From an uncultured delta proteobacterium (GTDB taxonomy: Bacteria; Desulfobacterota; Desulfobacteria; Desulfobacterales; CAVQMW01), in contig CAVQMW010000005.1 of NCBI GenBank assembly GCA_963713755.1, positions 1,291,074-1,355,073 on the forward strand: a DNA stretch of 64,000 nucleotides, in the 5' to 3' direction. The notes beneath the pieces are model-generated. The model did no database searches. It saw only the letters and a program-made list of their open reading frames with translations, and was not told the DNA's origin. Shown here in pieces: positions 6,801 to 45,546 of this stretch. Position numbers and translations under genes: made by a program. The stretch's first letter is position 1, and each line of letters opens with the position of its first letter.

Positions 6801-7024
6801 ATGTTGTCCACCCCGTTGATCTGCTGCTCCAGAGGGGTGGCCACCGACTGCTCCACACTCACCGCATTGGCGCCGGTATAAACTGCCCGCACCTGCACAA
6901 TGGGCGGTGTGATATCGGGGTACTGCTCCGTGGGCAGGCCGCTTAAGAACACCACACCGACGATGACCATAAATATGGCGATCACCATGGCGACAACGGG
7001 CCGATGAACAAAGAAATTTCCCAT
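3884..7024 (-). CDS. RND multidrug efflux permease (AcrB/HAE1 family)
   Basis: 1046 aa with the typical N-terminus MGNFFVHRPVVAMVIAIFMVIVG, a 12-TM layout and two large periplasmic loops. Confidence 0.95.
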   Translation of the reverse strand: MGNFFVHRPVVAMVIAIFMVIVGVVFLSGLPTEQYPDITPPIVQVRAVYTGANAVSVEQSVATPLEQQINGVDNMIYMKSTNANDGTMAIQVSFEVGTDPDMNTVFTQNRVAAATAKLPEEVKRLGVTTEKSLPNILMLISLTADEERFDQQFLGNYALINIKDILARIKGIGSVNVIGASDYSMRIWIKPDRLAHLGISVPEIVEAIRAQSVVVPGGKFGAEPAPPGTEFTYTVRLPDRLQNEQEFGEIVIRTTDQGAQVKIKHVARVELGVETYNAFTRLNGKPCAMIALYQAPGSNAVTLAEEVHRTMADLSSSFPNSMRYDVSLDTTTAITAGIDEIVETLIIALALVILVVYIFIQDWRAALIPTIAIPVSLIGAFIVFPLIGFTVNVLSLLGLVLAIGIVVDDAIVVVEAVQVNIEKGMAPKAATEAAMQEVTAPIVATTLVMVAVFIPVAVMGGITGRLYQQFAITVAVSVLFSSINALTLSPALCGLLLRKRKPLRGPLGLFFRGFNALFDTITAGYAGSVRFITRKIAVGLVFIVVLTAGLGGLGKLLPGGFMPSEDMGYLMVNVQLPDAASLQRSDAVVKTVEELITAHEEVDFVTAATGFSLISGSMSPNAGFVFVSLKEWDQREKTANDLVAALNRDFYGRISEAQVFAFGPPPIPGLGSGSGFTLMIQDQAGNTPQYLADQTAAFIQAALEQPEIGSIFTTFRASVPQRYMEINRDKVLKAGVALNDIYATVGAFLGGSYINDFNRFGRLYKAYIQAEPEYRINEEKINLFSVKNDEGQKVPLSAFVTVKEIAGPDFTTRFNLYRAIELTGGPAPGYTSVQALDALEAVAATVLPQGMGYAWSNMSFQEKKTSGSGAIVFVFSLVFVFLILAAQYESWSLPFSILLGTPFAIFGAFLALYLARLTSPSYELNVFAQIALVMLIAMAAKNAILIVEFANIEFKNGLSLFDAAVKAAQLRFRPILMTAFSFILGVMPLVVASGAGAEARVVMGVALLGGMTLATGLGVFFYPMLFVLVGIIAGYEKKRDLSNNPT

Positions 7025-7030
7025 GCTGGA

Positions 7031-8173
7031 CTAAATCTCGCTAAAGGCAGGCAGTTGAATCGCTTCGCTGACCGGGGTGACCTTGCCGTCGGCGCGAATC
7101 TTTTGCAGCCCTTCGTAGACCACCTGTTCACCGGGTTTGAGTCCCTCCCGGATCAGCCGGAAATTCTCAATGGCAGGCCCCACCCGGACCGGACGCTCTT
7201 CCACGCCGCCGTCCGGGGTCACCACATAGACGCTGTATTCTCCCTGAAGCTCGGTCAGGCAGCGCTGGGGGATCAGTATGCCGTTTTCGACCACTTCGGC
7301 CACGGCGCGGATTTTGGCGAACTGGCCTGGCCGCAGGAGTCTTTCCGGGTTGGGAAAGGAGGTTTGCACTCGGATGGCCCCGGTAGCGGGATCCACCTGC
7401 CGATCAATAAAATCAAACCGGCCCGTGTGGGCAAAGCGGCTGCCGTCGGCGAGGATCAGGGTGATATCCTCCTGGGGTTTGGCCTCAGTCTCTGTGGCGT
7501 AGCGTCGGGCCAGCTGCAGATACTGCTCCTCGGTCAAGAAAAACTGGACCCGGATGCTGTCAATCTGGGAGACAGTATTGAGAACCACGGTTCCCAGACT
7601 GCGGCCCACGAAATCTCCCACCTGGGATTCGGTTTGGCCGATGATTCCGGTGATGGGGGAGTAGATTTTGGTGTAGCCCAGCTGAATTTTTGCGGCCCGC
7701 AGATTGGCCTGGGCGGCCTCCACCGAGGCGACCGCCGCCTCCTGGCTGGCAATGGCGGCATCCAGATCGCTCTGGCTGACCGCCCGGCGCTGGGCCAGGG
7801 GGCGGATGCGGTTCAAATCGTTCTGGGCTTTGACCAGCATGGTTTTGGCTTCGGCCACGCGGCTCATCATGGCCGCCACTTCCGCCTCGTAGGGCTGACT
7901 TTCCAGCACATAGAGCAGGTCTCCCTGGATCACTTCCGAGCCCTCCTGGAAATGGGTCTCTTCCAAAAATCCTTCAACCCGCGCCCGAATGGCGATATCC
8001 TTGGCCCCTAAGACCTGTCCCACAAACTCCAGATGAAGGGGGACCTTTTGGGCCGCAGTTTGAACCACTTTTACCTGTGGCGGCGGGGGGGCTGGGGCCG
8101 CGGGATCCTCTGGGCGGCAGCCGGCGGCTGCCCCGGCCATCATCCACATGAGACAGATTAGTTTGATTTTCAT
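7031..8173 (-). CDS. RND efflux periplasmic adaptor (membrane fusion protein, AcrA/HlyD family)
   Basis: Lipoprotein signal MWMMAGAAAGC and MFP coiled-coil/barrel blocks. ATG 8173 is preferred over the track TTG at 8185. The stop is TAG at 7031-7033. Confidence 0.9.
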   Translation of the reverse strand: MKIKLICLMWMMAGAAAGCRPEDPAAPAPPPPQVKVVQTAAQKVPLHLEFVGQVLGAKDIAIRARVEGFLEETHFQEGSEVIQGDLLYVLESQPYEAEVAAMMSRVAEAKTMLVKAQNDLNRIRPLAQRRAVSQSDLDAAIASQEAAVASVEAAQANLRAAKIQLGYTKIYSPITGIIGQTESQVGDFVGRSLGTVVLNTVSQIDSIRVQFFLTEEQYLQLARRYATETEAKPQEDITLILADGSRFAHTGRFDFIDRQVDPATGAIRVQTSFPNPERLLRPGQFAKIRAVAEVVENGILIPQRCLTELQGEYSVYVVTPDGGVEERPVRVGPAIENFRLIREGLKPGEQVVYEGLQKIRADGKVTPVSEAIQLPAFSEI

Positions 8174-8526: not shown

Positions 8527-8871
8527 ATGCGAGATTTCATCAAGGTCATGAAAGCCCTCTCCGACCCCAACCGGGTCAAGATGCTCAAGCTGCTTCAGCG
8601 GCGGGTGCTGTGCGTGTGCGAGATCCAGGAAGCCCTGGGGCTGGCCCAGTCCACCGTCAGCAAGCACCTGAAGATCCTGGAGGAGGCTGGTTTGATCACC
8701 TTTCTCAAGGAGGGGCCCTGGGTCAATTACCGGTTAGCCGGCGGGGAAAGAAATCCCTATGTGGCCAATCTGCTGGGCAGTTTGCGGCATTGGCTGGAGG
8801 ATGATGCGGATGTGGCGGCCCTGGCGGCCAAACTGCCGCAGATCCATCGCGAAACCATCCGCGGCGGCTAA
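8527..8871 (+). CDS. ArsR/SmtB family metalloregulator
   Basis: ALSDPNRVKMLKLLQRRVLCVCEIQEALGLAQSTVSKHLKILEEAGLI is a winged HTH with the CVC metal/metalloid site. Confidence 0.9.
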   Translation: MRDFIKVMKALSDPNRVKMLKLLQRRVLCVCEIQEALGLAQSTVSKHLKILEEAGLITFLKEGPWVNYRLAGGERNPYVANLLGSLRHWLEDDADVAALAAKLPQIHRETIRGG

Positions 8872-8966
8872 TTTTTTTGGATTAACCATATCGTTATATT
8901 GCGATATAAGAATAAGTTGGCGTCTCGCGGGTCTTTCGCCCTCGGCCGCCGACCCGCGGAGCACAA

Positions 8967-10145
8967 ATGATGAAAGAGCGCAGCAAGCTGTTGTGGATTG
9001 TGGCTGTTTTTGTGGCTGCCTACTATGTTCCCTGGGGCCATCCTCGGATCCGCCAATCCGGGCTGGAAGCGTTCATGATGCTTCAGGAGTACGCCCGGGA
9101 GCATGTTCTCACCTGTTTGATACCCGCATTTTTCATTGCCGGGGCGATTGCCGTGTTCGTGTCCCAGGCATCGGTGCTCAAATATTTCGGGGCGCAAGCC
9201 AGTAAACTATTATCCTATTCGGTGGCCTCGGTTTCCGGAACCATTCTGGCGGTCTGCTCCTGCACGGTGCTGCCGCTGTTTGCCGGCATTTATACCCGGG
9301 GCGCGGGTATCGGGCCGGCCACGGCCTTTCTCTACTCCGGTCCAGCCATCAACGTGCTGGCTATCACCCTGACCGCTAAAATCCTGGGCTGGCAACTGGG
9401 TTTGGCGCGGGCCCTGGGCGCGGTCATTTTTGCCGTGATCACCGGCCTGCTGATGGCCCTGATCTTCCGCAAGGATGATGCAGCGCGCACCGCCGGGCAG
9501 ATCTACGTGCCGGAGGCCGAAGCCAAAGAGCGTACCCTTCTGCAGGATGTGTTGTACCTGCTCACCATGGTGTTGATCCTGGTGTTCGCCGCCTTTGCCA
9601 AGCCGGGCCCTGGCGCCACCGGCGTGTGGCCATTCATTTTTTTTGTCAAATGGTACGTCACCATCGCCTTGCTGATCATCCTGGGGTTGATGCTCAAGGC
9701 CTGGTTCACCAAGGATGAATGTAAAAACTGGGTGGAATCCACCTGGGGATTCATGAAACAGATCTTTCCCTTGCTGGCCGGGGGGGTGCTGGTGGCTGGA
9801 TTTATGCTGGGCCGCCCCGGTCATGCGGCCCTGATTCCCGAGCAGTGGATTGAGTCCCTTCTGGGGGGCAACTCCCTGGGGGCCAACCTGATCGCCGCCC
9901 TGGCCGGGGCCTTGATGTATTTCGCCACCCTGACCGAAGTACCCATCCTCCAGGGGCTGCTGGGGGCCGGTATGGGACAGGGGCCGGCCCTGGCGTTGCT
10001 GCTGGCCGGCCCGGCGCTCTCGCTGCCCAATATGCTGGTGATCGGCAGCGTCATGGGCGTGAAAAAAACAGCCACCTTTTGTGGGATCATCGTGGTTCTG
10101 TCGACCCTGGCCGGAATGCTTTACGGTGCGCTGTTCGTATATTGA
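8967..10145 (+). CDS. ArsP-like / UPF0718 family permease
   Basis: Polytopic membrane protein with the vicinal-Cys motif AVCSCTVLPLF typical of this permease family. It follows arsR. Confidence 0.8.
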   Translation: MMKERSKLLWIVAVFVAAYYVPWGHPRIRQSGLEAFMMLQEYAREHVLTCLIPAFFIAGAIAVFVSQASVLKYFGAQASKLLSYSVASVSGTILAVCSCTVLPLFAGIYTRGAGIGPATAFLYSGPAINVLAITLTAKILGWQLGLARALGAVIFAVITGLLMALIFRKDDAARTAGQIYVPEAEAKERTLLQDVLYLLTMVLILVFAAFAKPGPGATGVWPFIFFVKWYVTIALLIILGLMLKAWFTKDECKNWVESTWGFMKQIFPLLAGGVLVAGFMLGRPGHAALIPEQWIESLLGGNSLGANLIAALAGALMYFATLTEVPILQGLLGAGMGQGPALALLLAGPALSLPNMLVIGSVMGVKKTATFCGIIVVLSTLAGMLYGALFVY

Positions 10146-10160
10146 GAGCCTAAAGAAACC

Positions 10161-10236
10161 GTAGGGGCGGGCCTTGTGCCTGCCCGGATCCGGGCACCCA
10201 CAAGGGGTGCCCCTACACCTGCCCGGATCCGGGCGG
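10161..10236. repeat. REP-like palindromic element (GTAGGGGC...GCCCCTAC family)
   Basis: A 56-nt near-perfect hairpin, gtaggggcgggccttgtgcctgcccggatccgggcacccacaaggggtgcccctac. It is followed by a second partial copy of cctgcccggatccgggc. Confidence 0.7.
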
Positions 10237-10279
10237 CGGCCCATCGACTCATAAAAAAACAGATCTAAGGAGATTCGCC

Positions 10280-10513
10280 ATGGAAATCAAAGTATTGGGT
10301 CCTGGCTGCACCAAATGCCAAAAGGCGGAACGAGTGGTCAAAGAAGCGGTTGCAGAGTCGGGCGTGGCCGCGGATGTGGAAAAGGTCACTGACGTGATGC
10401 AGATCGCCGGCTACGGGGTGTTCGGCACACCGGCGGTTGTTATTGATGGTGAAGTCAAATCGGTGGGTAAGATCCCCAGCAAGGAAGAGGTCAAATCCTG
10501 GCTGAAAACGTGA
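10280..10513 (+). CDS. small thioredoxin-fold protein (redox-active disulfide protein 2 type)
   Basis: 77 aa, MEIKVLGPGCTKCQ with a CxxC motif. AAGGAG Shine-Dalgarno upstream. This protein commonly partners ArsR and the ArsP-like permease. Confidence 0.8.
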   Translation: MEIKVLGPGCTKCQKAERVVKEAVAESGVAADVEKVTDVMQIAGYGVFGTPAVVIDGEVKSVGKIPSKEEVKSWLKT

Positions 10514-10613: not shown

Positions 10614-10687
10614 GGGGGGTGGATCGCAATGGGATCGTGTGGGCTCTAAACCCACATAGCTCGGTGCAACACCGGGACTCCCCGCCA
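10614..10687 (+). tRNA. pylT: tRNA-Pyl (amber suppressor, anticodon CUA)
   Basis: GGGGGGT-G-GATC-GCAATGG-GATC-G-TGTGGG-CTCTAAA-CCCACA-TAG-CTCGG-TGCAACA-CCGGG-ACTCCCC-G-CCA. Features: 7-bp acceptor stem with one G-U; a single nt between acceptor and D stem; a short D arm; a 6-bp anticodon stem; CUA anticodon; a 3-nt variable loop; a T loop without the T-psi-C consensus; encoded CCA. It sits directly upstream of pylSc. Confidence 0.9.
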
Positions 10688-10722
10688 TCTTTTTGGTTTT
10701 CAACAGCAAGCTGGATCGCCCT

Positions 10723-11592
10723 ATGCCCACTCAAGCCGCCAGCAACCCGGAATCGATGTCCTGGTCCCAGGTTCAATTGCGCCGTCTCCGGGAGTTGAAT
10801 GCCGAGCCCCAGGTTTTGAAAAGGAAATTCATCCATGGCCCTCAGCGGGAGCAGGCTTTTCAGGAACTGGAAACGGCGCTGGTGAAGCAAGCCCGCCAGG
10901 GCCTGGAGGCCTTGCGCACCCAGGGGATGCGGCCCCGTCTGGTGCGTCTTGAGGGGCACCTGAGCCGCCTGCTGACGGATCTGGGTTTCGTCCAGGTGGC
11001 CACACCGATTTTAATGTCCCGGGGGCTGTTGGCCAAAATGACCATCGATGAGGCCCACCCGCTTTACGAGCAGGTGTTTTGGGTGGATGCCAAACGCTGC
11101 CTGCGGCCCATGCTGGCCCCGCATTTGTACTATATCCTCAAGGATTTGCTGCGCCTATGGCCCAAGCCGGTGAAGATTTTTGAGGTGGGTCCCTGCTTTC
11201 GCAAGGAGAGCGCCGGTTCCCAGCATGCCGAAGAATTCACCATGCTCAACCTTACCGAGTTCGGCTTGCCCGAGGACCAGCGCCATTCGCGCATTTCAGA
11301 GCTGGCCGACCGGATCGCCCATGCCGCGGGGCTTAAAGATTACCGGGTGGTTACGGAAAACTCGGCGGTGTACGGCGATACCCTGGACATCGAAGCCGGC
11401 GTCCGGCATCTGGAGGTGGGCTCGGCGGCCATGGGCCCCCATCCCCTGGATCGGCCCTGGCGGATCCGCGAGACCTGGATTGGAATCGGGTTCGGTCTGG
11501 AACGTCTGATTCTTGCGACAGAGGGCTATTCCCACCTGGCCATGGCCGGACGCAGCCTGGCCTATTTGGATGGGTTTCGCTTAAATCTATAG
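10723..11592 (+). CDS. pylSc: pyrrolysyl-tRNA synthetase, catalytic C-terminal subunit (bacterial split type)
   Basis: PylRS-specific blocks: WSQVQLRRLRELNA, LRPMLAPHLYYILKDL, KIFEVGPCFRKES, EEFTMLNL, SAVYGDTLDI, SAAMGPHPLD, WIGIGFGLERL and the C-terminus SLAYLDGFRLNL. ATG 10723 is preferred over the track TTG at 10693, which lies only 6 nt after the tRNA CCA. The stop is TAG followed immediately by TAA. Confidence 0.92.
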   Translation: MPTQAASNPESMSWSQVQLRRLRELNAEPQVLKRKFIHGPQREQAFQELETALVKQARQGLEALRTQGMRPRLVRLEGHLSRLLTDLGFVQVATPILMSRGLLAKMTIDEAHPLYEQVFWVDAKRCLRPMLAPHLYYILKDLLRLWPKPVKIFEVGPCFRKESAGSQHAEEFTMLNLTEFGLPEDQRHSRISELADRIAHAAGLKDYRVVTENSAVYGDTLDIEAGVRHLEVGSAAMGPHPLDRPWRIRETWIGIGFGLERLILATEGYSHLAMAGRSLAYLDGFRLNL

Positions 11593-11633
11593 TAAGCAAA
11601 AAAAATTCAGCCTTTAGCCCATCGATAGCGCCT

Positions 11634-12464
11634 ATGACCCGTCTTACTGTTGAAGATATCGGCACCATCGCGGCCGGCTTGAAAGATTACGACCGCGAGC
11701 TGCGAGCCAAAACCGGGCGCACCTTGCTGGGCGTGGCCTGCCATGCCGCCAGCATTCCCGCCAAAACCATCGCCCGGCGGCTGGGGAAAATCCGCTTGGC
11801 GGTGATTCCCATCAGCGCAGGAAAAGGCACCATCCCTGGTTTCAGCGAGTCGCTGGTCGCCATTGGTTCGCATCTGGGGCTCAACGCCTTTCTGGCTGGG
11901 GCCAAAGACGCCGCCGGGGTTGCCGAGGCGGTGGAGCGCAAGGCCAACTGGCTTTGGATGTCCGATGATGACCGGTTCGTGCTGGTGGATCTGATGCGCC
12001 GCCGGGTGGTGGACAACAGTGTCGCCACGGGGCGCGGGTTTGCCGCGGGACTCGACTTGATGGCCGGGGGGGTGGCCGGAAAGCCGGTGGCGGTGATCGG
12101 CTGCGGTCCCGTGGGGTTGAATGCGGCGCGCATGCTGATGGAGTTCAAGGCCCAGGTGACACTGCACGACATCCGCCGCCGGCAGGCCGCCGCCGCCGCC
12201 GCGGTCCTTGGGCAAGAGCAGGTCCAGATCGCCACGGATTTCAGCGAGGTGGTGGCGGGCCATGATTTGCTGGTGGATGCCACCAACATGGGCGCCCTGA
12301 TTCCGGCCATGGCCATCACCGCCTCCACCTTTATCGCCGCGCCGGGCATGCCCCTGGGGGTGACTTCCGAAGCTCGGGCGCGTCTCGAGGATCACCTGCT
12401 CCATGACCCCCTGCCCCTGGGCGCCGCCACCATGGTGGCCATGGCCCTGATTTCCGGCAAGTAG
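11634..12464 (+). CDS. pylD: pyrrolysine biosynthesis dehydrogenase PylD
   Basis: These blocks align with archaeal PylD as I recall it: LTVEDI, AVIPISAGKGTIPGFSESL, MSDDDRF, VAVIGCGPVG, APGMPLGVTSE, PLGAATM. TAG stop at 12462-12464. Confidence 0.85.
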   Translation: MTRLTVEDIGTIAAGLKDYDRELRAKTGRTLLGVACHAASIPAKTIARRLGKIRLAVIPISAGKGTIPGFSESLVAIGSHLGLNAFLAGAKDAAGVAEAVERKANWLWMSDDDRFVLVDLMRRRVVDNSVATGRGFAAGLDLMAGGVAGKPVAVIGCGPVGLNAARMLMEFKAQVTLHDIRRRQAAAAAAVLGQEQVQIATDFSEVVAGHDLLVDATNMGALIPAMAITASTFIAAPGMPLGVTSEARARLEDHLLHDPLPLGAATMVAMALISGK

Positions 12465-12467
12465 ACC

Positions 12468-12812
12468 ATGGCTGATACCACTCCCAAGCCCCAGCGCCAG
12501 CGCTTCTACCGTAAGCGGGTGGCGCTGCTGCTGCTCATCGACAAGATCAAGCTCTGGCCTTCCCGCCGGGGCCTGCTCCACGGCATCAAGCAGATCGAGA
12601 CCCTGGGCGAACAGGCGCGGATTACCACCCACTGCAACAAAACCTTCTTGGTCAACAACTCCCGCAACAGCCGCGCGGCCCGCTGGCTGCGCAACAAGTG
12701 GTACCAGGGGGTCTGCCCCCTCTGCCAGGTGCCGGACTGGAAGCTGGCCAAATATCAGGCCACCAAATTCAGGCGCCACTATGGGGCTTCGTTGGACAAG
12801 CCCGGGGACTGA
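12468..12812 (+). CDS. pylSn: PylRS N-terminal tRNA-binding domain protein
   Basis: 114 aa. FLVNNSRNSRAARWLRNKWYQGVCPLCQV parallels the archaeal PylRS N-terminal block [29 protein letters not shown]. The ATG lies 3 nt after the pylD TAG. Confidence 0.85.
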   Translation: MADTTPKPQRQRFYRKRVALLLLIDKIKLWPSRRGLLHGIKQIETLGEQARITTHCNKTFLVNNSRNSRAARWLRNKWYQGVCPLCQVPDWKLAKYQATKFRRHYGASLDKPGD

Positions 12813-12879
12813 TTTAGCCCTTCCGCCATTGATTTTAAATCTATCTTCGAAAATTTCACAAAAAATCCTTGACGGGGTC

Positions 12880-12946
12880 ACTCCCGCGCTGGCTGGAGCC
12901 CATAAGCGACCGGACAAATCGATTCCCGCCACCGCGGGAATGACGA
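12880..12946. repeat. REP-like hairpin element (TTCCCGC..GCGGGAATGAC family)
   Basis: Hairpin attcccgc-cacc-gcgggaat at 12922-12941. The 12-mer CGCGGGAATGAC recurs at 63931-63942. Confidence 0.5.
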
Positions 12947-12970
12947 TCTGAATCCGCTCTATAATCTTCC

Positions 12971-14524
12971 CTAGCGTGGGTAGCCGGTGATCTCCCGCAA
13001 CCGTTGGTAGAGGGGTTTCAAGCGTTTGTACATCTTGAGATAGACATCCCGATAGATGGCGTCGTAAAGCTGATGAGTGGGGTGGTGGGGTTCGAACACG
13101 CGCTGGACATGGGTCATGGCCGCCACGGCGCTGGGGATGTCGGCGTGCAGCTTTAACCCCGCGGCCGCTACCACCGCGGCTCCCAGCCCCGAGGTTTCGT
13201 AGACATGGGGACGGGCCGCCGGTTTGCCGAACAGGTCGGCGGTGAGCTGCATGGCGCCGTCGCTCTGGGAGCCCCCGCCGCACACCCGCAGGGTGGTGAC
13301 CGGGGTGCCGCTGCGCTGCTGGATCCGCTCCAGCCCCTCCCGCAGGGCATAGGCCACCCCTTCCAGAATGGCCCGGTAGAGGTGCGCCCGGGTATGCACG
13401 TCACCAAAACCGATCACCGCGCCCTTGGCTTCCGGCCCCGGATTTTTCAGCCCTGGGGTCCAATAGGGCTGGAGAATCAGCCCCATGCTGCCCGGGGGCG
13501 TGGTGGTCAGGAATTCTTCAAAGAGCGCCTCGGTGGATCCGTTCTCCTTGGCCGCCCGGAGCTGCTCCAGGTGGCCGAACTCCTCCTTGAACCAGTTCAC
13601 CATCCAATAGCCCCGGTAGACCAGCACCTCCATGGTGTGATGGTGGGCAATGGCTGCCGGATAGGCCGGCAGCAGGGGGGTCGGTTCGATGTACTTGGGG
13701 TGGGTGACGTTGATGGTGGCCGTGGTGCCGTAACCCAGGCAGGCCGTCTCGGGGCGGAAACAGCCGCAGCCCAGCACCTCGGCGGCCCGGTCCGCGGCCG
13801 CGGCCACCAGGGGCAGCCCGGCGGGTATGCCGGTATCCGTCGCGGCCTTCCGGGTGATGGTTCCCAGGGGCCGGCCCGGGGCGACCAGATGGGGCAGCTG
13901 CTCGGGTGTCAGGGGCAGCAGCCGCCACCTCCAGTCCCGGGGCGAGGCCCAGCGCAGCCGGCGATAGTTGAAGGGAATGTAGCCCACCTGGCAGCCTACG
14001 GAGTCCGCATAGCGTCCGGTGAGCCGGTAGGTGAGGTAGCCGGAGAGCAGCAGAAATTTATGGGTTTTTTTCCACACCTCCGGCTGGTAGGTGCGCACCC
14101 AGTTGGCCTCGGCCTCGGCCTGCAGGTAGGCGATGGTTCCCGAGAGGCCGCCCGCTTTGAACAGCAGGCCCCACAGCCCCCCCAGGGGTTTGGCATCGTA
14201 GGTCTTACGCTGGTCCAGCCACAAAATGGCCGGCCGCAGAGGCCGCCCCTGGCGGTCCACATTGATCACCGTGGCGCGCTGGGTGGTCAAGGCGACCCCG
14301 GCCAGACGCGGGCGGGCATCCGGGGCTTCGATCCACAGCTTGCGGCAGGCGCTCGACAGGGCTTCCCAGAAGAGGTCCGGATCCTGCTCGGCCCAGCCGG
14401 GGCGGGGGCTGACGTAGGGCTTAAAGGGGATTTGAACTTTGGCCCGCAGCTCGCCCTGGGGATCGAACAGCATGGCCTTCAGGCTCTGGGTGCCGTTATC
14501 GATGGCCAGGATCAGCTCTTTCAT
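12971..14524 (-). CDS. FGGY-family carbohydrate kinase
   Basis: [29 protein letters not shown]-terminal sugar-kinase signature. Start trimmed to ATG 14524 (AAGGA upstream). TAG stop. Confidence 0.85.
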
Positions 14525-14791
14525 TGGGATTCCTTGGAGGGCTCCGTTCAACCACTATTTTGGTTCCGGATGATCCAGGCTGGGGGAAAGGAGAGTTATC
14601 CGTGCCACCCATTCACATTAGGCTGGATGTACTGCGTTTAAAATATCTTTACAAGTTCGGCAATTTATCTTTAAAATATCGACCCTTTACGTGGCTTGAA
14701 TTTGTAAATCAGCACATGGGCGGGCAGCGGGGCGCCAAAATAGGCGGATACCCGCCCGAATCAATATTGCGCTCAGATCCAAGGAGAATCC

Positions 14792-15445
14792 ATGGGACAC
14801 ATTCCGCTGGTCATCGCCACCGGCAATGCGGGCAAGGCGGCCGAAATCCGAGAGCTGCTGGCCGGTTTCCCGGTGGCGATCAAGTTTTTAGGGGACTTCG
14901 GCCCCCTGCCGCCCATCACCGAGGATGGGGAGACCTTTGAGGCCAATGCCTACAAAAAGGCCAGCTTTACGGCGCGGGTGCTGGGGATGCCCGCTCTGGC
15001 CGATGATTCGGGGCTGGTGGTGGCGGCTTTGGATGGCCGTCCGGGGGTGCTTTCGGCGCGCTACGGTGAGCCCGACTGGAGCGATGCCCAGCGCGCCGCG
15101 CAACTACTGGCCGAGATGAAAGGTCAAACCGACCGGCGGGCGGCCTTTGAGTGCGTCATCTCCGTGGCCGTTCCCGACGGGCCGGCCCTCACCTATGAAG
15201 GATGCTGCCAAGGCGAGATCGCCGCGGCCCCGGCCGGGGAAAACGGGTTCGGCTACGATCCCATCTTTTACTATCCGCCCTTGAAAAAGACATTTGCCCA
15301 GCTGGATCGGGAAACCAAAAGCAGCGTCAGCCACCGCGGCCAGGCCCTGGAGGAGCTTCGCGATGAGTTTGACAAAGTGCTCAAGTGGATCGAGCTGCAG
15401 ATGCCGCTGGCCCAATGGAATGCTCTGAAGGGCGGCGGGGAGTAG
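14792..15445 (+). CDS. rdgB: RdgB/HAM1 non-canonical purine NTP pyrophosphatase
   Basis: IPLVIATGNAGKAAEIRELL..TEDGETFEANAYKKA..FGYDPIF..SHRGQAL. Confidence 0.9.
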   Translation: MGHIPLVIATGNAGKAAEIRELLAGFPVAIKFLGDFGPLPPITEDGETFEANAYKKASFTARVLGMPALADDSGLVVAALDGRPGVLSARYGEPDWSDAQRAAQLLAEMKGQTDRRAAFECVISVAVPDGPALTYEGCCQGEIAAAPAGENGFGYDPIFYYPPLKKTFAQLDRETKSSVSHRGQALEELRDEFDKVLKWIELQMPLAQWNALKGGGE

Positions 15446-15724
15446 TTTCCGCTATCCGCGTCCCGGTCGGCTGGGGGCTTGAGTGGAAAATGATTTTTGC
15501 AAATATAGACATAATCACCTATACAACGGGTAACCGCGAACCTAAGTGCTCCTGTTCATAAAAACAGTGGCATAATGAGGACGTCAAGGCGCCGGGCGGA
15601 CAAGGCGCGAAAGATAAGGAATATCGGGAATATTGCGTTTTCTCGCAACGCCGGCCGACCGGATGGATTGGCAGCCGAATGTCATCGTATTCGCGAATAG
15701 GACCACCAAGCACAGGGGGTAAAC

Positions 15725-17692
15725 ATGGAGCTTTTGAATCAGGGGCTGGACATCGTTGTTGAATTGGGCGGAATTCGAACATTGGCCCAAGCCCAAGCGC
15801 TGTTCGGCGATCAATTGGATGATGCCCACCTGGCCCGCATCCAAACCATCGAAACCCCTGATGTACTCATCAAAATCGCCAATGCCATTGCCATCTGCAA
15901 ACCGTCGCGGGTGTTTATCCACACGGGGTCCGACGACGATCGCGCCTTTATCCGTTCCCTGGCCATCGAGCGGGGCGAAGAGCGGCCGCTGGCCATGACG
16001 GGCCACACCATCCATTACGATCTGAAAGAGGAGCAGGGGCGCATCATCGACCGGACCTACTACCTCTATAACAAAGGCGAGACGGTCAGTCCTTTAGGGC
16101 GCAAGATCTTGCGGGCCGACGCCCTGGCCGAGGTGCGGGACAACATGGACGGCATCATGAAGGGCATGGTGATGATGGTGGGTTTTTTCGTGCGGGGACC
16201 CATCGGCGCCCAGGTCAGCAACCCCGCCCTGGAAATCACCAGTTCGGCCTATGTGACCCACAGCGCCGACCTGCTCTACCGTCATGCCTTCGAGATGTTC
16301 GACAGCGAGGTGGCCCGCTCGGGCCATTTTTACACCAACATTCACAGCCAGGGGCTCAATCGGCCCGAAGACCTGCCCGCGGCGCGGGTTTTCATGGATC
16401 GCAGCTATCGCACCACCTTCAGTTTCAACTGCACCTATGCCGGCAACACCCTGCTGTTGAAAAAGGGCAATCATCGTTTCTCCGTGGACCGTTCCATTTA
16501 TGAAAAGCCGGGTATGGAGTTGGCCGAGCACATGTTCATCACCGGCATCATCGGCCCAACTGAGCGGGTCACCTGGTGTGCCGGCGCAGCGCCCAGCGGT
16601 TGCGGAAAAACCACCACGGCCATGGCCGGCGGCCGCTTTATCGGCGATGACCTGGCCCAAATGTGGATCGCCCAGGACGGCAGCGTGCGCTCGGTCAATC
16701 CCGAGTGCGGTATTTTCGGGATCGTGGAGGATGTGAACTGGGGAGGCGATCCGCGGCTCATGGAGCTGCTGCGGCGGCCGGGGACCGAGGTGATCTGGTC
16801 CAATGTGCTCATCGACGGCAACGACGTGCCCCACTGGGCCGGCAACGGGGAGCCGGTTCCCGATAAAGGGTTCAATTTTCAGGGGCCCTGGGAAAAAGGC
16901 ATGACCGACGAGAGCGGCAAAGCGGTACCCATCTCCCATCCCAACGCCCGCTGTACCCTGATGGCCAGAGCCCTGGGCAACTATTCCGAGCAGTGTGAAT
17001 CCCCCAAGGGCGTGGAAACCCGGATCATCACTTACAGCGGGCGGGACAGCGACACCATGCCGCCGCTTAGGGTGGCGAAAAACTCGGATGAAGGCGTGGT
17101 GATCGGGGCCACCATCGTTTCGGCGGCCACGGCCACGGAGGTGGGCGCCAGCGGGGTTCGCCGCCAGCCCTGGGCCAACGCGCCCTTCATTCCCGGCTCC
17201 CTGGCCGACTACATGGCGGCCCAGTTCAACTTCTTCGGCAGCAGCCAGATCGACGACGCCAAGCGGCCCATCATCGCCGGCTTGAACTACTTTCTCACCG
17301 ACGCGGCCCGGGGCGGGTCCAGCCCCAAGCTGCTGGGGGAAAAGAGGGATGTCAAGGTGTGGCTGGGTTGGTTGGAGCGCCGCGCCCACCAGGAGGTGGC
17401 GGCCATCGACACGCCCATCGGCTACCTGCCCAAGTATGAAGACCTCAAGGGGCTGTTTACCGAAATTATCGACAAAGCTTACCCCCGGGAGCTGTATGAT
17501 AAGCAGTTTTCCCTTTATATCGACAACATTGTCACCCGCATTGACCTGCAGCTTGAGGCCTACGGCGAAAATCCGGCTACACCGGCCAGGTTGTTCTCCA
17601 TCTTGAAAGCCCAGAAAGCGGCCCTGGAGGGTCTCAAGGCCCAGTACGGTCCCGTTATCCCTCCAGGCGTGCTGGACGCCCCTGAATCATAG
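15725..17692 (+). CDS. phosphoenolpyruvate carboxykinase (GTP-type)
   Basis: 655 aa with the kinase-1a loop AAPSGCGKTTTAM and PEPCK-GTP blocks (NPECGIFGIVEDVNW, HPNARCT). Confidence 0.85.
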   Translation: MELLNQGLDIVVELGGIRTLAQAQALFGDQLDDAHLARIQTIETPDVLIKIANAIAICKPSRVFIHTGSDDDRAFIRSLAIERGEERPLAMTGHTIHYDLKEEQGRIIDRTYYLYNKGETVSPLGRKILRADALAEVRDNMDGIMKGMVMMVGFFVRGPIGAQVSNPALEITSSAYVTHSADLLYRHAFEMFDSEVARSGHFYTNIHSQGLNRPEDLPAARVFMDRSYRTTFSFNCTYAGNTLLLKKGNHRFSVDRSIYEKPGMELAEHMFITGIIGPTERVTWCAGAAPSGCGKTTTAMAGGRFIGDDLAQMWIAQDGSVRSVNPECGIFGIVEDVNWGGDPRLMELLRRPGTEVIWSNVLIDGNDVPHWAGNGEPVPDKGFNFQGPWEKGMTDESGKAVPISHPNARCTLMARALGNYSEQCESPKGVETRIITYSGRDSDTMPPLRVAKNSDEGVVIGATIVSAATATEVGASGVRRQPWANAPFIPGSLADYMAAQFNFFGSSQIDDAKRPIIAGLNYFLTDAARGGSSPKLLGEKRDVKVWLGWLERRAHQEVAAIDTPIGYLPKYEDLKGLFTEIIDKAYPRELYDKQFSLYIDNIVTRIDLQLEAYGENPATPARLFSILKAQKAALEGLKAQYGPVIPPGVLDAPES

Positions 17693-17723
17693 CACTCCAG
17701 TCAAGCGCGCCGCTTCGGCAGCG

Positions 17724-17767
17724 AATGGGCAACGGCGTTTTTCTCGCACCGTTGCCCATTTGTTTTG
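17724..17767 (+). terminator. rho-independent terminator after the PEPCK gene
   Basis: A 12-bp stem, aatgggcaacgg / ccgttgcccatt, followed by tgttttg. Confidence 0.8.
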
Positions 17768-17793
17768 CGAATAGGAGTCTAAGCCCCACTGCC

Positions 17794-19038
17794 ATGGACA
17801 CGCCAAGCGCCCACCCTTCGCTGATTCGAACCATCGCCAGCCGGCGCATGCTGGTCTCGCTTCTGATGGGTTACGCCTGCGGATTGCCCCTGCATCTGAC
17901 CCTGGGTGTGCTTCAGGCCTGGATGAAGGAGTCGGGGGTGGATCTGACGCTCATCGGGCTGATGTCCCTGGTGGGACTGCCCTACACGTTGAAGTTTCTC
18001 TGGGCACCCATCATGGATCGCTACACCCTGCCTTTCCTTGGCCGGCGTCGGGGCTGGCTGCTGGTGGCCCAGGGGGCACTGTTGATCTCCATTGTGGCCC
18101 TGGGTCGCACCGATCCGCTGCAAACCCCCTGGCTGGTTGCCCTGGCGGCGTTGCTGGTGACCCTTTCCAGCGCTTCCCAGGATATTGTGGTGGATGCCTA
18201 CCGGCGGGAAGACCTGGCCGATGCGGAGTTGGGCTTCGGCTCCTCCCTGTATGTGTTCGGCTACCGCATGGGCATGCTGCTGGCCGGCGGGGGCGGGTTG
18301 ATTTTCGCCGATTATTTGCCCTTCAGCATGGTGTATGCCATCATGGCCGCCTGTTTACTGCCGGGAATTCTCACCACCCTTCTGACCCCCGAACCGCAAA
18401 CCCCGGAAGGTACGCCCAAAACTCTGATGGATGCCGTATTCCAGCCCCTGGCGGAATATCTTCGGCGCCCGGGGGCATTGTGGATGCTGGCCTTCATCCT
18501 GTTTTATAAAATCGGCGATACCATGGCCAGTGCCATGACCATGCCCTTATACCTGGATCTGGGATTCACCAAGACCCAGATCGGGGCTATTACCAAGATC
18601 TTTGGCCTCTGGGCCGTGGTGGCCGGCGGGCTGGTGGGCGGGGTGGCCATGATGCGGCTGGGGATCAACCGCAGCCTGTGGGTTTTTGGATTCCTGCAGG
18701 CCCTTTCCACGGCGGGCTTCGCCTTGCTGGCCCAAATCGGTCCCCAGGTTGCGGCCCTGGCCGGGGTGATCGCCTTTGAAAATATCAGCAGCGGGATGGG
18801 CACCGCGGCCTTTGTCGCTTTTATGGCCAGCATCACCAACAAAAGATTTACCGCCACCCAGTATGCCCTGCTCTCCAGTCTCATGGGCATCCCCCGGGTG
18901 ATCGCCGCGGCGCCCACCGGCTTTTTGGCCAAATACTTGGGCTGGGAGGCATTTTTCATTGTCTGTGCCCTGATTGCCGTTCCGGGAATGCTGATGCTGC
19001 TGAAATTTGCGCCCTGGGGTTCTCGGAGGGCGGGCTAG
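17794..19038 (+). CDS. ampG: AmpG-family muropeptide MFS transporter
   Basis: GYACGLPLHLTLGVLQAWM..LPYTLKFLWAPIMDRY. Start moved to ATG 17794 because the track start lies inside the upstream terminator. Confidence 0.85.
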   Translation: MDTPSAHPSLIRTIASRRMLVSLLMGYACGLPLHLTLGVLQAWMKESGVDLTLIGLMSLVGLPYTLKFLWAPIMDRYTLPFLGRRRGWLLVAQGALLISIVALGRTDPLQTPWLVALAALLVTLSSASQDIVVDAYRREDLADAELGFGSSLYVFGYRMGMLLAGGGGLIFADYLPFSMVYAIMAACLLPGILTTLLTPEPQTPEGTPKTLMDAVFQPLAEYLRRPGALWMLAFILFYKIGDTMASAMTMPLYLDLGFTKTQIGAITKIFGLWAVVAGGLVGGVAMMRLGINRSLWVFGFLQALSTAGFALLAQIGPQVAALAGVIAFENISSGMGTAAFVAFMASITNKRFTATQYALLSSLMGIPRVIAAAPTGFLAKYLGWEAFFIVCALIAVPGMLMLLKFAPWGSRRAG

Positions 19039-19115
19039 GCGGGGGAGCCGCGGCCCGCGGAGATAGGCAGGGTTGGCCCCAAGGGGTTCGAATCTTATTT
19101 TATGGATAAATAGAT

Positions 19116-20867
19116 TTGGAAAGCGGGTTGAATATCATGCAACAGGCACCTGTGGATAGCGTTGCCAAGGCGCGTTCGGAAAAACTGTTGACCGAGCGCC
19201 GGAAGATTTTCGCGCTGCCTCCGGAAACGGCCCTGAAGGCGATTTTGGATCTGGAGCAGCCTTTGCCCGTGGTGCATTCCATGGCGCCCCAGGATCTTCA
19301 TCTGCTGATTCGCGATATCGGTCCCGATGATGCCCTGGCGCTGCTCAATCTGGCCTCCAACGGGCAGTGGGATTTCATCCTGGACATAGAGGCCTGGCAG
19401 CGGGACCGGCTGGAGAGCGGGAAGCTGATGCGCTGGCTGGGGCGGCTCCAGGAGGCCGATGGGCGCCGGTTGGGCGGATATCTGTTTGAAAACCAATCGG
19501 AGCTGCTCGCGCTTTATCTCTACCGCAGCATCGAGGTTTACATCCGTGAACATGACCAAGAGGCCAGCGAGATGCCGGCGGATACCTTCACTCTGGAGGG
19601 CCAATTTTATATTCGCATTCCTGAAATCGAGGAGCTCGACCCCGAAGTGGACGGCGCCCGCCAGGAGGCCATCCGCTGGCTGCTGGAGGATTATGCCGAT
19701 CGGGATTACGCCGGATACCAGAAGATTATGCTGGAAACCGTCACGGTGCTGCCCGCTGAGATGGAAGAGGAAGCCTATCGTATGCGCAATGTGCGCCTGG
19801 CGGAACGGGGTGTGCCGCCCTTTCACGAGGCCATCGGCATTTATCAGCCTTTGAGCCGAAAGCGCGTTGATAAAATCTCCCGCACGGGCCGGCGGGCCAA
19901 TTCCGATGTGTCCGCCGGCAGCTTGGCCCCCATCCTGCCCGAGGAGCTGTTGCCGCCCGATGAACTCCTGGCCCAAGCGTTGGCGCGGGTTCCCGCCGGC
20001 TCGTTCTTGGACCGTCTGCGGGGGGAACTGGCGTTTTTGGGCAATGCCGTGATCGTGGCCGACCAGGAACGGCTTACCTGTCGGGAGGAGTTGGCAGCGG
20101 TGATGGGGAAGGTGGTCAGCCGGATTGCCATGGGCCTGGAGGAGGTTGCGGGCCAGGCTGTCACCGCCGCCCAGGCCGCCCGCTGGCTGAAACGGGTCGC
20201 TTTGCCGGATCTGTTTCGCATTGGCCAGGGGGTGATCCTGGAACTTCACGGAAAAGCCAAAACCTGGGTCGCCCGGAGCTGGTTCAACCGCCAGGGCCTG
20301 CCCATCACGTTTTGGGATGAAGCCGGTATGGGGGTTGTGGGGGGGTTGCTGCTCAAGCGGCCCCGCTGCTACGACCCGAGCCAATCCGGCGAGACGTACC
20401 GTGAGTTCGAATCCCTGGGAGAATTGGCCGCGGCTGAGTCGGAGTTGACCCAATTGGCCGTTTGGGACGATCTGCTGGAGGCCTTGGAACTGCCCCTGAT
20501 CCAAACATCCAGGGAAGGTGCTCCCCTGACCTATAGGAATCTGATCCTGACCTTCTGGGTCCATCATCTGCTGGGTGGCGCGGCTGGCTCGCCCGGGCCA
20601 CTTACCCACGACCAGCTTTGCGATCTGTTGCCGCGACTGTTTGAGCGGCCCGGCAGCGGGCAGGGGGTTTCCCCAGGAGCTAAAGATCAGTTCTGGGCCT
20701 GGCTGGCGCAGCGCTCGGGGTGGTCTTCCGTCGAGCTTGACGAGCGGCTGGGCAAGACCGCGAATCTTCTGTTTGAAGAGATCGCCGAAGTTTTGGGCCA
20801 TATGGCCCCCGCCGATCTCGATCCACGCTACATCCAACTTTTCATCGTGGATCTGCCGGAAAAATAG
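19116..20867 (+). CDS. conserved hypothetical protein (no motif I can name)
   Basis: 583-aa ORF with balanced Leu/Glu/Ala-rich composition. The antisense 580-aa ORF is Gln/Gly/Pro/Arg-rich. The start is ambiguous (TTG 19116 or ATG 19137). Confidence 0.6.
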   Translation: MESGLNIMQQAPVDSVAKARSEKLLTERRKIFALPPETALKAILDLEQPLPVVHSMAPQDLHLLIRDIGPDDALALLNLASNGQWDFILDIEAWQRDRLESGKLMRWLGRLQEADGRRLGGYLFENQSELLALYLYRSIEVYIREHDQEASEMPADTFTLEGQFYIRIPEIEELDPEVDGARQEAIRWLLEDYADRDYAGYQKIMLETVTVLPAEMEEEAYRMRNVRLAERGVPPFHEAIGIYQPLSRKRVDKISRTGRRANSDVSAGSLAPILPEELLPPDELLAQALARVPAGSFLDRLRGELAFLGNAVIVADQERLTCREELAAVMGKVVSRIAMGLEEVAGQAVTAAQAARWLKRVALPDLFRIGQGVILELHGKAKTWVARSWFNRQGLPITFWDEAGMGVVGGLLLKRPRCYDPSQSGETYREFESLGELAAAESELTQLAVWDDLLEALELPLIQTSREGAPLTYRNLILTFWVHHLLGGAAGSPGPLTHDQLCDLLPRLFERPGSGQGVSPGAKDQFWAWLAQRSGWSSVELDERLGKTANLLFEEIAEVLGHMAPADLDPRYIQLFIVDLPEK

Positions 20868-43246: not shown

Positions 43247-44794
43247 TCAGGCGTCTTTGCTTACACTGGGAAATCGGTCGGGGTCGGTGTGGGGCAGAAA
43301 TTTGGCCGCTGAAAAGCGGTTCATGAACTCTTGGTTGACGTTGAGCTCCAGGTAGGTGATTTGATCCCGGAGGGTGTAGATATCGTCAATCCGTTGCGGG
43401 TCGAGCAGGAGTTGCGCGGCGCCTTCCAGGGAACTGTTGCCCAACACCTGAAAGCGCTCCAGGGGCAGGTCGGGAAGCATGCCGATGGTGATGGCGGCGC
43501 TGGGGTCGATCAGGGATCCGAAGGTGCCGGCCACGTAGAAGGTCTCGATATCGCCGAGTTGCAGGCCCACGGAACTCACCAGGGTTTCCAGAATGGTGTA
43601 CATGGCGGCCTTGGAGCGGATCAGGCTGTCCAGGTCGGGCTGACACAGGGTCAACTCCCGGCCGGTTGCCGATTGTTCGGCGGCCACCACTTGCAGCCCA
43701 TGGAGCCCGTTGTGGGAGAGGAACCGGGTACCGCAGGCCTCGGGCACCAGTTTGCCGCGGATGTCCAGCATGCCCGCCTTGAACAGCTCGGCGGCCAGTT
43801 CGATCACTCCCGAGCCGCAGATGCCCCGGGGAGGTTGGTCGCCGATGGTTTGAAAGCGGAACTCCCGGGTGTCGGGGTCGATGCGCACCCGCTCGATGAC
43901 GCCGGGGGCGGCAGGCATGCCGATCTTGCTCACGCCGCCCTCCAGGGCCGGACCGGCGGCTCCGGCGCAGGCGATGAGCCAGTTGCGGTTGCCCAGCACC
44001 ACTTCGGCATTGGTGCCCACGTCCACCAGCAGGGCGGTCTCCTCCCGGGTGTGCATTCCGGAAAACAGGACCCCGGCGATCAGATCCCCGCCAAAGTAGC
44101 TGCCCACATTGGGAAAGACGCGCAGCGGGGCGTCCGGCTGGATCGCCAGATTCAGCTCGGCGGCCCGAATCACCGGCGGCCGGTTCACCACGGGGATATA
44201 GGGTTCGCGAATGATTCTTTGGGGAGGGAGACCCAGAAAAAGGTGGGTCATGGCGGTGTTGCCGGCCAGGGTCATGGCCCAGACATCTTCGGGACGACCG
44301 CCGGACTCGCTGCAAAGCCGGCGGATGTTGGCGTTGAAACCTTCGATAATGAGGGTCTGCAGCTCCCTCAGACCCCCGGGCCGATCGGTGAAGTGGATGC
44401 GGGCCAGCACGTCGGGCGCCACCCGGCTCTGGGGGTTATCAAAGGCCGCCTCGCCCACCACCGTCAACTGCGCCAGGCCCACCAGGCGGATCACCACCCG
44501 GGTGGTTCCCAAGTCCACGGCCAGGCCCCACACCGGGCGCGGGTCCCTTGCCGGCAGGACCTGCAACAGGCTGGCTCCCCGGGACCTGGGCGCTACAATG
44601 CAGCGCACCTGCCATTGACTTTGGCGCAGGATCGCCGGCAAGGTTTTTAACAGTGGATAAGCGATACGCAGAGGCGCGCCAACCCCGGCCCGCTCCAGGG
44701 CCTGCCTCAGACGCTCCGCGTCGGCGGTGTTGTCTTCGAGGGAGGGCGGCGCGAGCTCTAAATCGATCACCCAGGGAGAACCGTGAGGCCTCAT
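43247..44794 (-). CDS. ASKHA-fold DUF4445 protein (RACo/RamA-like corrinoid reductive activase core, no Fe-S domain)
   Basis: GLAVDLGTTRVV, LAGNTAMTHLFLG, LLVDVGTNAEVVLG, ICGSGVIEL and AGTFGS blocks. No Cys cluster. ATG 44794 forms ATGA with the sirtuin stop. Confidence 0.8.
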   Translation of the reverse strand: MRPHGSPWVIDLELAPPSLEDNTADAERLRQALERAGVGAPLRIAYPLLKTLPAILRQSQWQVRCIVAPRSRGASLLQVLPARDPRPVWGLAVDLGTTRVVIRLVGLAQLTVVGEAAFDNPQSRVAPDVLARIHFTDRPGGLRELQTLIIEGFNANIRRLCSESGGRPEDVWAMTLAGNTAMTHLFLGLPPQRIIREPYIPVVNRPPVIRAAELNLAIQPDAPLRVFPNVGSYFGGDLIAGVLFSGMHTREETALLVDVGTNAEVVLGNRNWLIACAGAAGPALEGGVSKIGMPAAPGVIERVRIDPDTREFRFQTIGDQPPRGICGSGVIELAAELFKAGMLDIRGKLVPEACGTRFLSHNGLHGLQVVAAEQSATGRELTLCQPDLDSLIRSKAAMYTILETLVSSVGLQLGDIETFYVAGTFGSLIDPSAAITIGMLPDLPLERFQVLGNSSLEGAAQLLLDPQRIDDIYTLRDQITYLELNVNQEFMNRFSAAKFLPHTDPDRFPSVSKDA

Positions 44795-45546
44795 GGGCAC
44801 GCCCCGGCTATCCGGCTCAATATCTCCCCGGCGCCGCCTTGGATCAGGTAATGGCTGGTGCCCTGGGTCAGGGGGGTGGCCTCGGGGTTGATTTCAATGA
44901 TTGTGGCGCCCGCGGCCCGGGCCATGGCGGGCAGGCTGGCGGCGGGCTGCACTACGGCCGAAGTGCCGATGACCAGCATCAGGTCGCAGGTGGCCACGAT
45001 CTCTTGGCAGCGTGCCAGAGGGGTGAAGGGGATCAGCTCTCCGAACAGCACGCAGTCCGGCCGCCATAACCCTCCGCAGGGGCAGCGCGGGGGCAGCTCG
45101 TCCAGGACCAATTCCCGGCTGGGCAGGGTCCGACCGCAGGAATCACAGCGCTGCCAGGCGAAGTTGCCGTGAAATTCGATCACATCCGTGTTGCCGGCGG
45201 CCTGGTGCAGGCCATCCACATTCTGGGTGATGACGGTTTTCAGCCGGCCCAGTTCTTCCAGGCGCGCCAACCCGAGATGGCCGGCGCTGGGGCGGGCCTG
45301 GTCCAGAACGGTTTTCATTTCTAGAAACAGAACCTGCCATACTTTCTTAGGGTTCCGCTGAAAGGCCTGAATGGTGGCGTATTCCATGGGGTCGATGCGT
45401 TCCCAGACGCCGCCTTTGCCGCGAAAGGGCGGAATGCCGCTTTCCGAGGAAATGCCCGCCCCGGTGAGAGCCACGGCGTGGCGGGCGCGGGTCAGGTCGC
45501 GAACCGCACGTTCAATGTTGTCTGTGGGAGGTACTGAAGAACTCAT
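44791..45546 (-). CDS. cobB: NAD-dependent protein deacylase (Sir2/CobB family)
   Basis: [22 protein letters not shown], the Zn ribbon CDSCG..CPCGG and the catalytic His in EFHGN. Start trimmed to ATG 45546. Confidence 0.9.

Follow-up and report, generated by a model that had tools for sequence, protein, structure and literature searches.

Gene content of the pyl locus

The pyl locus lies on a 64,000-nt stretch of DNA, referred to as the window, which is part of a 1.84-Mb contig of an uncultured bacterium. The GlnA encoded in the window shares up to 84% identity with that of Desulfobacterales MAGs, and DNA of the window is present in freshwater and other sediment metagenomes. The pyl genes are all located on the plus strand, in the order pylT-pylSc-pylD-pylSn. 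The tRNA-Pyl gene pylT (10614-10687, anticodon CUA) was identified with ARAGORN and occupies the same relative place in relatives; it was not reported by Rfam at the gathering threshold. It is followed by pylSc (10723-11592), encoding the catalytic subunit of a split pyrrolysyl-tRNA synthetase (PylRS), with a match of 324 bits to TIGR02367, above the cut-off of this model. The start of pylSc, ATG at 10723, is the one called in public assemblies, and its TAG stop codon is directly followed by TAA (11593-11595). The product of pylD (11634-12464), a 3-methylornithyl-N6-L-lysine dehydrogenase of 276 amino acids, scored 214 bits with TIGR03911 (cut-off 150 bits) and matched PF21455 (PylD_N). The last gene, pylSn (12468-12812, stop codon TGA), encodes the tRNA-binding small subunit of PylRS, with 114 amino acids and a score of 127 bits with TIGR03912 (cut-off 51 bits). 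The latter two scores bear out the gene names pylD and pylSn given in a first-pass annotation of this DNA. PylRS is split: PylSc and PylSn are separate proteins, both above the cut-offs of curated models.

Split-PylRS clusters of bacteria, such as those of Desulfitobacterium hafniense and Deltaproteobacteria, are organized as pylT-pylSc-pylB-pylC-pylD-pylSn. The window resembles these clusters in its tRNA-Pyl(CUA) and in its PylSc, PylD and PylSn, which match curated models. The position of pylSn directly after pylD is also that of most of 80 related loci retrieved with PylSn, and the canonical order of all six genes was found in most of these loci. The window differs in that pylD follows pylSc without pylB and pylC in between, and neither gene was detected in the remainder of the 64 kb, as judged by Pfam scans and by tblastn with PylB and PylC of L001. 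A methylamine methyltransferase gene was not found in the 64-kb window either (Pfam scans, 41 validated genes), and pylB, pylC and a methylamine methyltransferase gene were equally absent from a 20-kb sister contig. The order without pylBC is otherwise confined to the clade of the window (L087, L172 and L081/L082), of which one further member, L169, has also lost pylD.

Scans for promoters and terminators gave nothing usable inside the cluster, where neither a terminator-like site nor a promoter-like site on the plus strand was seen. Elsewhere in the window, a RACo/RamA-like activase gene at 43247-44893 is the sole methyltransferase-related gene. A set of plus-strand ORFs at 305-2062, split by TAG codons, was considered as a gene containing pyrrolysine (Pyl) and rejected, these ORFs being spurious and antisense to a large PAS/kinase gene, which is encoded on the minus strand and extends beyond the window.

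The pylD-pylSn junction

The stop codon of pylD is a TAG (12462-12464), separated from the ATG of pylSn (12468-12470) by the three nucleotides ACC (12465-12467). In its context, ATT TCC GGC AAG TAG ACC ATG GCT GAT ACC, the junction (12462-12470, plus strand) can be read in a single frame. The first-pass annotation had described pylD as ending in TAG one codon before the pylSn ATG and the two ORFs as sharing a frame, and both statements hold for the sequence and the ORF coordinates: no stop codon occurs between the TAG and the TGA of pylSn at 12810, which is the next one in frame. The same annotation had predicted a PylD-Pyl-Thr-PylSn protein upon suppression of the UAG, which is formally correct from the sequence.

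The gene boundaries are consistent with those in related contigs. PylD has its C-terminus at the corresponding position in L087 and L173, and the start methionine of PylSn is homologous in L087, L169 and L173. The conserved domain of PylSn spans residues 16-104 (TIGR03912), with the first 15 residues outside the domain. The junction was found to be identical in four independent public assemblies encoding the same PylD (L083-L086) and is therefore no assembly error.

Translation start of pylSn

A Shine-Dalgarno sequence (SD) had been reported missing before pylSn, and the duplex energies agree: the best anti-SD duplex in the 17 nt before the ATG reached -1.7 kcal/mol, compared with medians of -5.3 kcal/mol for the genes of the window and -2.8 kcal/mol for random positions. 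The other protein-coding genes of the cluster are likewise without SD (pylD +0.3 kcal/mol, pylSc -3.1 kcal/mol), and a strong SD is missing in 61% of the genes of the window. Several other clades have an SD-like sequence, GAAGG or AGAGG, within the final codons of pylD; the window has none there. No stimulatory RNA structure was detected around the junction, the fold of 12440-12580 being not significant (z-score -0.67), and an Rfam search returned no PYLIS and no other family.

Termination-reinitiation is known at closely spaced or overlapping bacterial genes, of the ATGA or TAATG type. The structural features of such coupled junctions are present here, with a stop-start gap of 3 nt (1 or 3 nt within the clade) and a weak ribosome binding site, and ATGA overlaps occur at the same junction in relatives. 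There is no mechanistic difference from the classical cases; the one peculiarity is that the stop codon of the window is UAG in a carrier of tRNA-Pyl. Because stop and start lie close together in many relatives (27 of 53 junctions, see below), translation of pylSn is likely to be coupled to termination on pylD. The reinitiation put forward for pylSn in the first pass therefore agrees with the gap, the missing SD and the spacing in relatives, with coupling itself as the inferred part. Initiation of pylSn independent of both an SD and coupling is also possible, since 61% of the genes in the window have no strong SD.

Use of TAG as a stop codon

Among the 41 Pfam-validated genes of the window, 16 end in TGA, 13 in TAG and 12 in TAA, which amounts to 32% TAG. 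The genes with TAG include those for PEPCK, acetyl-CoA synthetase, PII, an FGGY kinase, Ham1 and an MFS transporter. On the sister contig L087, TAA or TGA is the stop codon of the FGGY kinase, Ham1 and PEPCK genes. The FGGY kinases of window and L087 both terminate after YPR, at equivalent positions, and the lengths of Ham1 (217 versus 221 amino acids) and PEPCK (655 versus 653 amino acids) are similar, so TAG is a true terminator in these three genes. TAG is also the stop codon of three out of 10 genes in L087.

The pyl genes themselves show the same picture. Of 281 pyl genes from about 80 related bacteria that encode Pyl, 92 (33%) were found to end in TAG, namely 18/50 for pylSc, 25/52 for pylB, 7/38 for pylC, 12/62 for pylD and 30/79 for pylSn. 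The high share in pylB was examined as a conserved Pyl site and set aside, as it is explained by the overlapping start of pylC (..GC ATG C TAG). TAG is thus an everyday stop codon in the window and is not avoided in the pyl genes of Pyl-encoding bacteria.

With TAG ending 32% of the validated genes and one frame in three being shared, the chance expectation of an in-frame TAG junction is about 0.1. A second such junction was located in the window on the minus strand (7022-7033), where the TAG of an HlyD-family membrane-fusion gene (Pfam HlyD_D23) is separated by TCC AGC from the ATG of an AcrB-family gene (Pfam ACR_tran), all in one frame; the translation across it is ...PAFSEI*SSMGNFFVHRPV. 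Two of the 13 TAG-terminated genes of the window consequently run in frame into their neighbour. As 32% of the stop codons are TAG and the operons are tightly packed, this configuration arises by chance, and the in-frame TAG junction of pylD and pylSn is no more than chance would give.

Survey of pylD-pylSn junctions in relatives

A sample of 53 non-redundant junctions with pylD immediately before pylSn was compared. The stop codon of pylD was TGA in 24, TAA in 19 and TAG in 10, and pylSn started in frame 0 in 12 junctions, in frame 1 in 15 and in frame 2 in 26. Junctions were regarded as capable of fusion when both genes share a frame with no stop codon in between. Seven qualified, three with TAA, three with TGA and one with TAG, the last being that of the window. 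Under independence, about 1.3 cases of a fusion-capable TAG junction are expected among the 53 (TAG 19%, fusion-capable 13%) and one was observed. The stop-start gap ranged from -23 to +6 nt in 27 of the 53 junctions; ten of these are ATGA overlaps, and others have gaps of 0, 1 or 2 nt. Outside the clade of the window, TAG was present in eight of 51 junctions, with gaps of -23 to +197 nt.

The first-pass annotation had suggested a comparison of this junction in other Pyl-encoding bacteria and had named a TGA, a TAA or a different frame in related genomes as evidence against its idea. This is largely what was found, with TAA or TGA in 43 of the 53 junctions and differing frames. Neither the identity of the stop codon nor the shared frame is conserved among orthologues (one of 53 junctions combines TAG with a possible fusion, and the frame differs in L087 and L173). 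The conserved property of the pylD-pylSn junction is closeness, not frame. A natural PylD-PylSn fusion was found neither among the best 120 PylD homologues (273-357 amino acids) nor among the best 120 PylSn homologues (112-164 amino acids).

The clade of the window

Among the best 120 matches in a database of 5.8 billion proteins, the PylD of the window was at most 50% identical to other PylDs, with one exception at 70%. A scan of species-representative genomes with PylD revealed no close PylD; neither the species of the window nor its clade is among the species representatives, and the clade members were taken from metagenome contigs. The relative at about 70% (L081, L087, L088 and L172) shares the order pylT-pylSc-pylD-pylSn and the downstream synteny of FGGY, Ham1, PEPCK, MFS and DUF6178. 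Its junction reads AAA TAG C ATG, with a spacer of 1 nt that places pylSn out of frame; readthrough would add 16 codons up to a TAA and would give no fusion. The junction of L173 is also TAG C ATG, and the PylDs of both the L087 type and L173 are about 70% identical to that of the window.

The closest relative in PylSn (86%) is L169, with 83% identity in PylSc. Here only the last 37 or so codons of pylD remain, starting about 40 nt after pylSc. In this remnant 16 of 66 nt differ (24%), and the changes alter the amino acid in 11 of 13 affected codons. The decayed remnant still ends in TAG CGC ATG, in frame with pylSn. The persistence of TAG plus 3 nt in L169, where a fusion partner for PylSn is missing, argues for inheritance and not for selection for a fusion.

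In an alignment of the four lineages of the clade (A1), the TAG and the CATG are invariant and are separated by a 2-nt spacer indel, the spacer being 3 nt in two lineages (the window and L169) and 1 nt in two (the L087 type and L173). An intact pylD combined with a shared frame is encountered only in the window.

Interpretation of the junction

The junction is very probably an ordinary one of a compact operon, with pylSn coupled to pylD, a shared frame that is coincidental and any fusion a by-product. The pylT-pylSc-pylD-pylSn genes would form one transcription unit of a freshwater-sediment Desulfobacterales bacterium, in which UAG would be the normal terminator of pylD, as for about one third of the genes of this organism. 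The SD-less AUG of pylSn, 3 nt downstream, would receive its ribosomes directly from termination on pylD, and the shared frame would have come about as a by-product of the 2-nt spacer indel, not through selection. Should charged tRNA-Pyl compete with release factor, a minority of the ribosomes may read through and produce a 392-residue PylD-Pyl-Thr-PylSn protein. This protein would be one among many tolerated readthrough by-products, which would include the fusion of membrane-fusion protein and AcrB in the window. It need not be inactive, since the conserved domain of PylSn begins only at residue 16 and PylRS has tolerated fusions at its N-terminus in engineering work (PMC8905625).

A second reading, which overlaps with the operon junction and does not exclude it, is that this clade has an incomplete or decaying Pyl system, that UAG is never suppressed and that the junction is without consequence. 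The missing pylB, pylC and methylamine methyltransferase genes in the 64 kb and in the 20-kb sister contig fit such a decay, as do the loss of most of pylD in L169, the very high TAG usage and the dN/dS of pylD, which at 0.25 relative to L087 is the highest of the region. Against it, pylSc, pylD and pylSn are intact and under purifying selection relative to the sister species, with dN/dS values of 0.14, 0.25 and 0.15 respectively (neighbouring genes 0.09-0.14) at a dS of about 0.8-1.2, and tRNA-Pyl is intact as well. Furthermore, pylB and pylC may be located elsewhere on the 1.84-Mb contig, and a metatranscriptome contig of 161 nt is identical to positions 12668-12827, covering the 3' part of pylSn. 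A system that no longer suppresses UAG is accordingly regarded as rather unlikely.

The UAG could also act as a switch independent of the frame. Located 1-3 nt before the SD-less AUG of pylSn, it would, when read through, block re-initiation and lower the amount of free PylSn. Readthrough would give the fusion in the window and a 16-codon run-on across the pylSn start in L087 and L173. If true, such a switch would be a sensor of charged tRNA-Pyl that exerts negative feedback on tRNA-Pyl charging by throttling PylRS. The TAG of pylD is kept in all four clade lineages at a dS of 0.8-1.2, although the spacer varies in sequence and length, and the stop codon changed in four of seven syntenic genes between the window and L087. 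The conservation could reflect shared ancestry alone or a weak constraint acting on this stop codon. A switch is in line with the missing SD and the spacing of 1 or 3 nt, and a similar idea was raised for the TAG of archaeal pylB (PMC12626013). Four related lineages, however, amount to little more than one observation, and the TAG in the neutral-looking remnant of L169 would survive by chance with a probability of about 0.44 by our own estimate. TAG is frequent in any case (13 of 41 genes in the window, three of 10 in L087), and outside the clade it was seen in only eight of 51 junctions, with gaps of up to +197 nt. We consider this switch improbable.

Least of all can the in-frame UAG be taken for a selected device by which abundant Pyl-tRNA would yield PylD-Pyl-Thr-PylSn instead of two proteins and feed back onto the Pyl machinery: the fusion is formally encoded, the 15 residues ahead of the PylSn domain could serve as a linker, engineered PylRS accepts N-terminal fusions and the three pyl genes are under purifying selection, but a fusion is possible in only one of 55 lineages examined, the frame change in the nearest relatives with an intact pylD (L087 and L173) largely refutes the idea, L169 has TAG and 3 nt after the decayed remnant of its pylD, TAA or TGA is the stop codon in the remaining six in-frame junctions, stimulatory structure is lacking and the unrelated HlyD-AcrB pair has the same configuration. 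The view of the first-pass annotation that the output of the Pyl machinery is wired back onto its own components is not supported, as frame and stop codon are not conserved and the nearest intact relatives are out of frame. A regulatory invention at this junction does not hold up, and its importance is small.

Comparison with other Pyl-encoding organisms

The first-pass annotation knew of no description of such an arrangement, and this suggestion of novelty is weakened by work on archaea. In the preprint of Kivenson et al. on Pyl archaea (2024, 10.1101/2024.09.30.615893), in-frame fusion with the next gene upon TAG readthrough is one of the categories distinguished, and for the genes of Category 3 the use of TAG as stop or sense codon is not predictable. 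A 2025 study (PMC12626013) reported that Methanosarcina acetivorans decodes UAG ambiguously and noted a TAG inside a pyl gene, that of PylB, as a possible tuning point. The class of in-frame TAG fusions is thus known in Pyl archaea. The window agrees with the archaeal cases in that readthrough of a terminal TAG would lead in frame into the following gene. It differs in that the pair is PylD-PylSn, the organism is a bacterium and TAG makes up 32% of the stop codons, compared with 1-27% in Pyl-positive archaea.

According to a review (PMC11467909), Acetohalobium arabaticum expresses pylTSBCD and reads amber codons only in the presence of trimethylamine. The bacterium of the window, with common TAG stop codons next to pyl genes, would similarly need a conditional or weak suppression. 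It differs from A. arabaticum in that neither pylBC nor a methyltransferase gene was found nearby.

The frequent TAG in pyl and housekeeping genes fits a conditional or weak decoding of Pyl in bacteria and not a genome-wide reassignment. The in-frame arrangement is a handy natural reporter in an uncultured sediment bacterium: a PylD-PylSn protein of about 43 kDa, or the junction peptide ...ALISGK-Pyl-T-MADTTPK, would measure UAG readthrough. More notable than the junction is the reduced pyl cluster of this clade, which is without pylB and pylC and in one member (L169) also without pylD, yet with both synthetase subunits.

A reduced pyl cluster and its relatives

The pyl cluster of the window (10614–12812) has the order pylT-pylSc-pylD-pylSn and is without pylB and pylC. 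The same reduced order, also lacking both genes, and the same flanking synteny were found in the sister species, whose PylD is 70% identical (contig L087, 4049–6262). In a third, metagenomic lineage (L169, 1–769), what is left of pylD between pylSc and pylSn is a decayed stretch of about 37 codons. It looks as though pyrrolysine biosynthesis was lost or relocated stepwise, with both synthetase subunits retained under purifying selection.

Directly 5′ of pylT, the window carries genes for an ArsR regulator, an ArsP-type permease and a small thioredoxin-fold protein (8527–10513), whereas an AAA_14/DUF4143 ATPase gene takes their place in the sister species. Synteny thus breaks off at the upstream edge of the pyl cluster. 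The tRNA-Pyl gene itself (10614–10687) was called by ARAGORN; a search of the whole 64 kb against Rfam returned no family at its gathering score, the general tRNA model included. In a sediment metatranscriptome (run X11), a contig of 161 nt was identical to window positions 12668–12827, a stretch that takes in the 3′ end of pylSn and continues into the sequence downstream. As evidence for transcription of the pyl cluster in situ the match is weak, because DNA carry-over is a possible source of the contig.

Genes for RACo/RamA-type reductive activases of corrinoid proteins are frequent companions of methylamine methyltransferases and pyl genes. One such gene is present on the minus strand of the window (43247–44893), where it sits beside a Sir2-family gene and a two-component system; neither a methyltransferase nor a corrinoid protein is encoded near it.

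TAG stop codons in and around the cluster

The pylSc gene ends in a tandem stop, with an in-frame TAA directly following the TAG (11590–11595). At the pylSc stop position, TAA is found in the sister species and TAG in L169. Seven of the eight consecutive genes at 10723–20867 stop at TAG (pylSc, pylD, FGGY, Ham1, PEPCK, MFS and DUF6178), pylSn being the sole exception, compared with six of the 33 genes in the rest of the window (P ~0.012 for the run, in a post hoc permutation test). Of these genes, just pylD and MFS have a TAG stop on the sister contig.

For pylB, the stop was TAG in 25 of 52 related clusters (from loci L001–L080, gathered via PylSn). Most of these TAG-ended genes are overlapped over 4 nt by the start of pylC, in the arrangement GC ATG C TAG (e.g. 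3942–3948 in L002), so that in most cases the pylB TAG is set by the first codons of pylC.

At the start of the window, TAG-separated ORFs on the plus strand (305–2062) were considered as a pyrrolysine-containing gene and rejected, since they are antisense shadows of a minus-strand PAS/kinase/receiver gene (1–2300) that spans 764 codons or more and runs past the window start.

A second junction with an in-frame TAG lies on the minus strand at 7022–7033, where the TAG stop of an HlyD-family membrane-fusion gene is followed by two codons and then by the ATG of an AcrB-family gene, all in one shared frame. If this UAG were read through, both efflux components would be joined in one protein of about 1430 residues.
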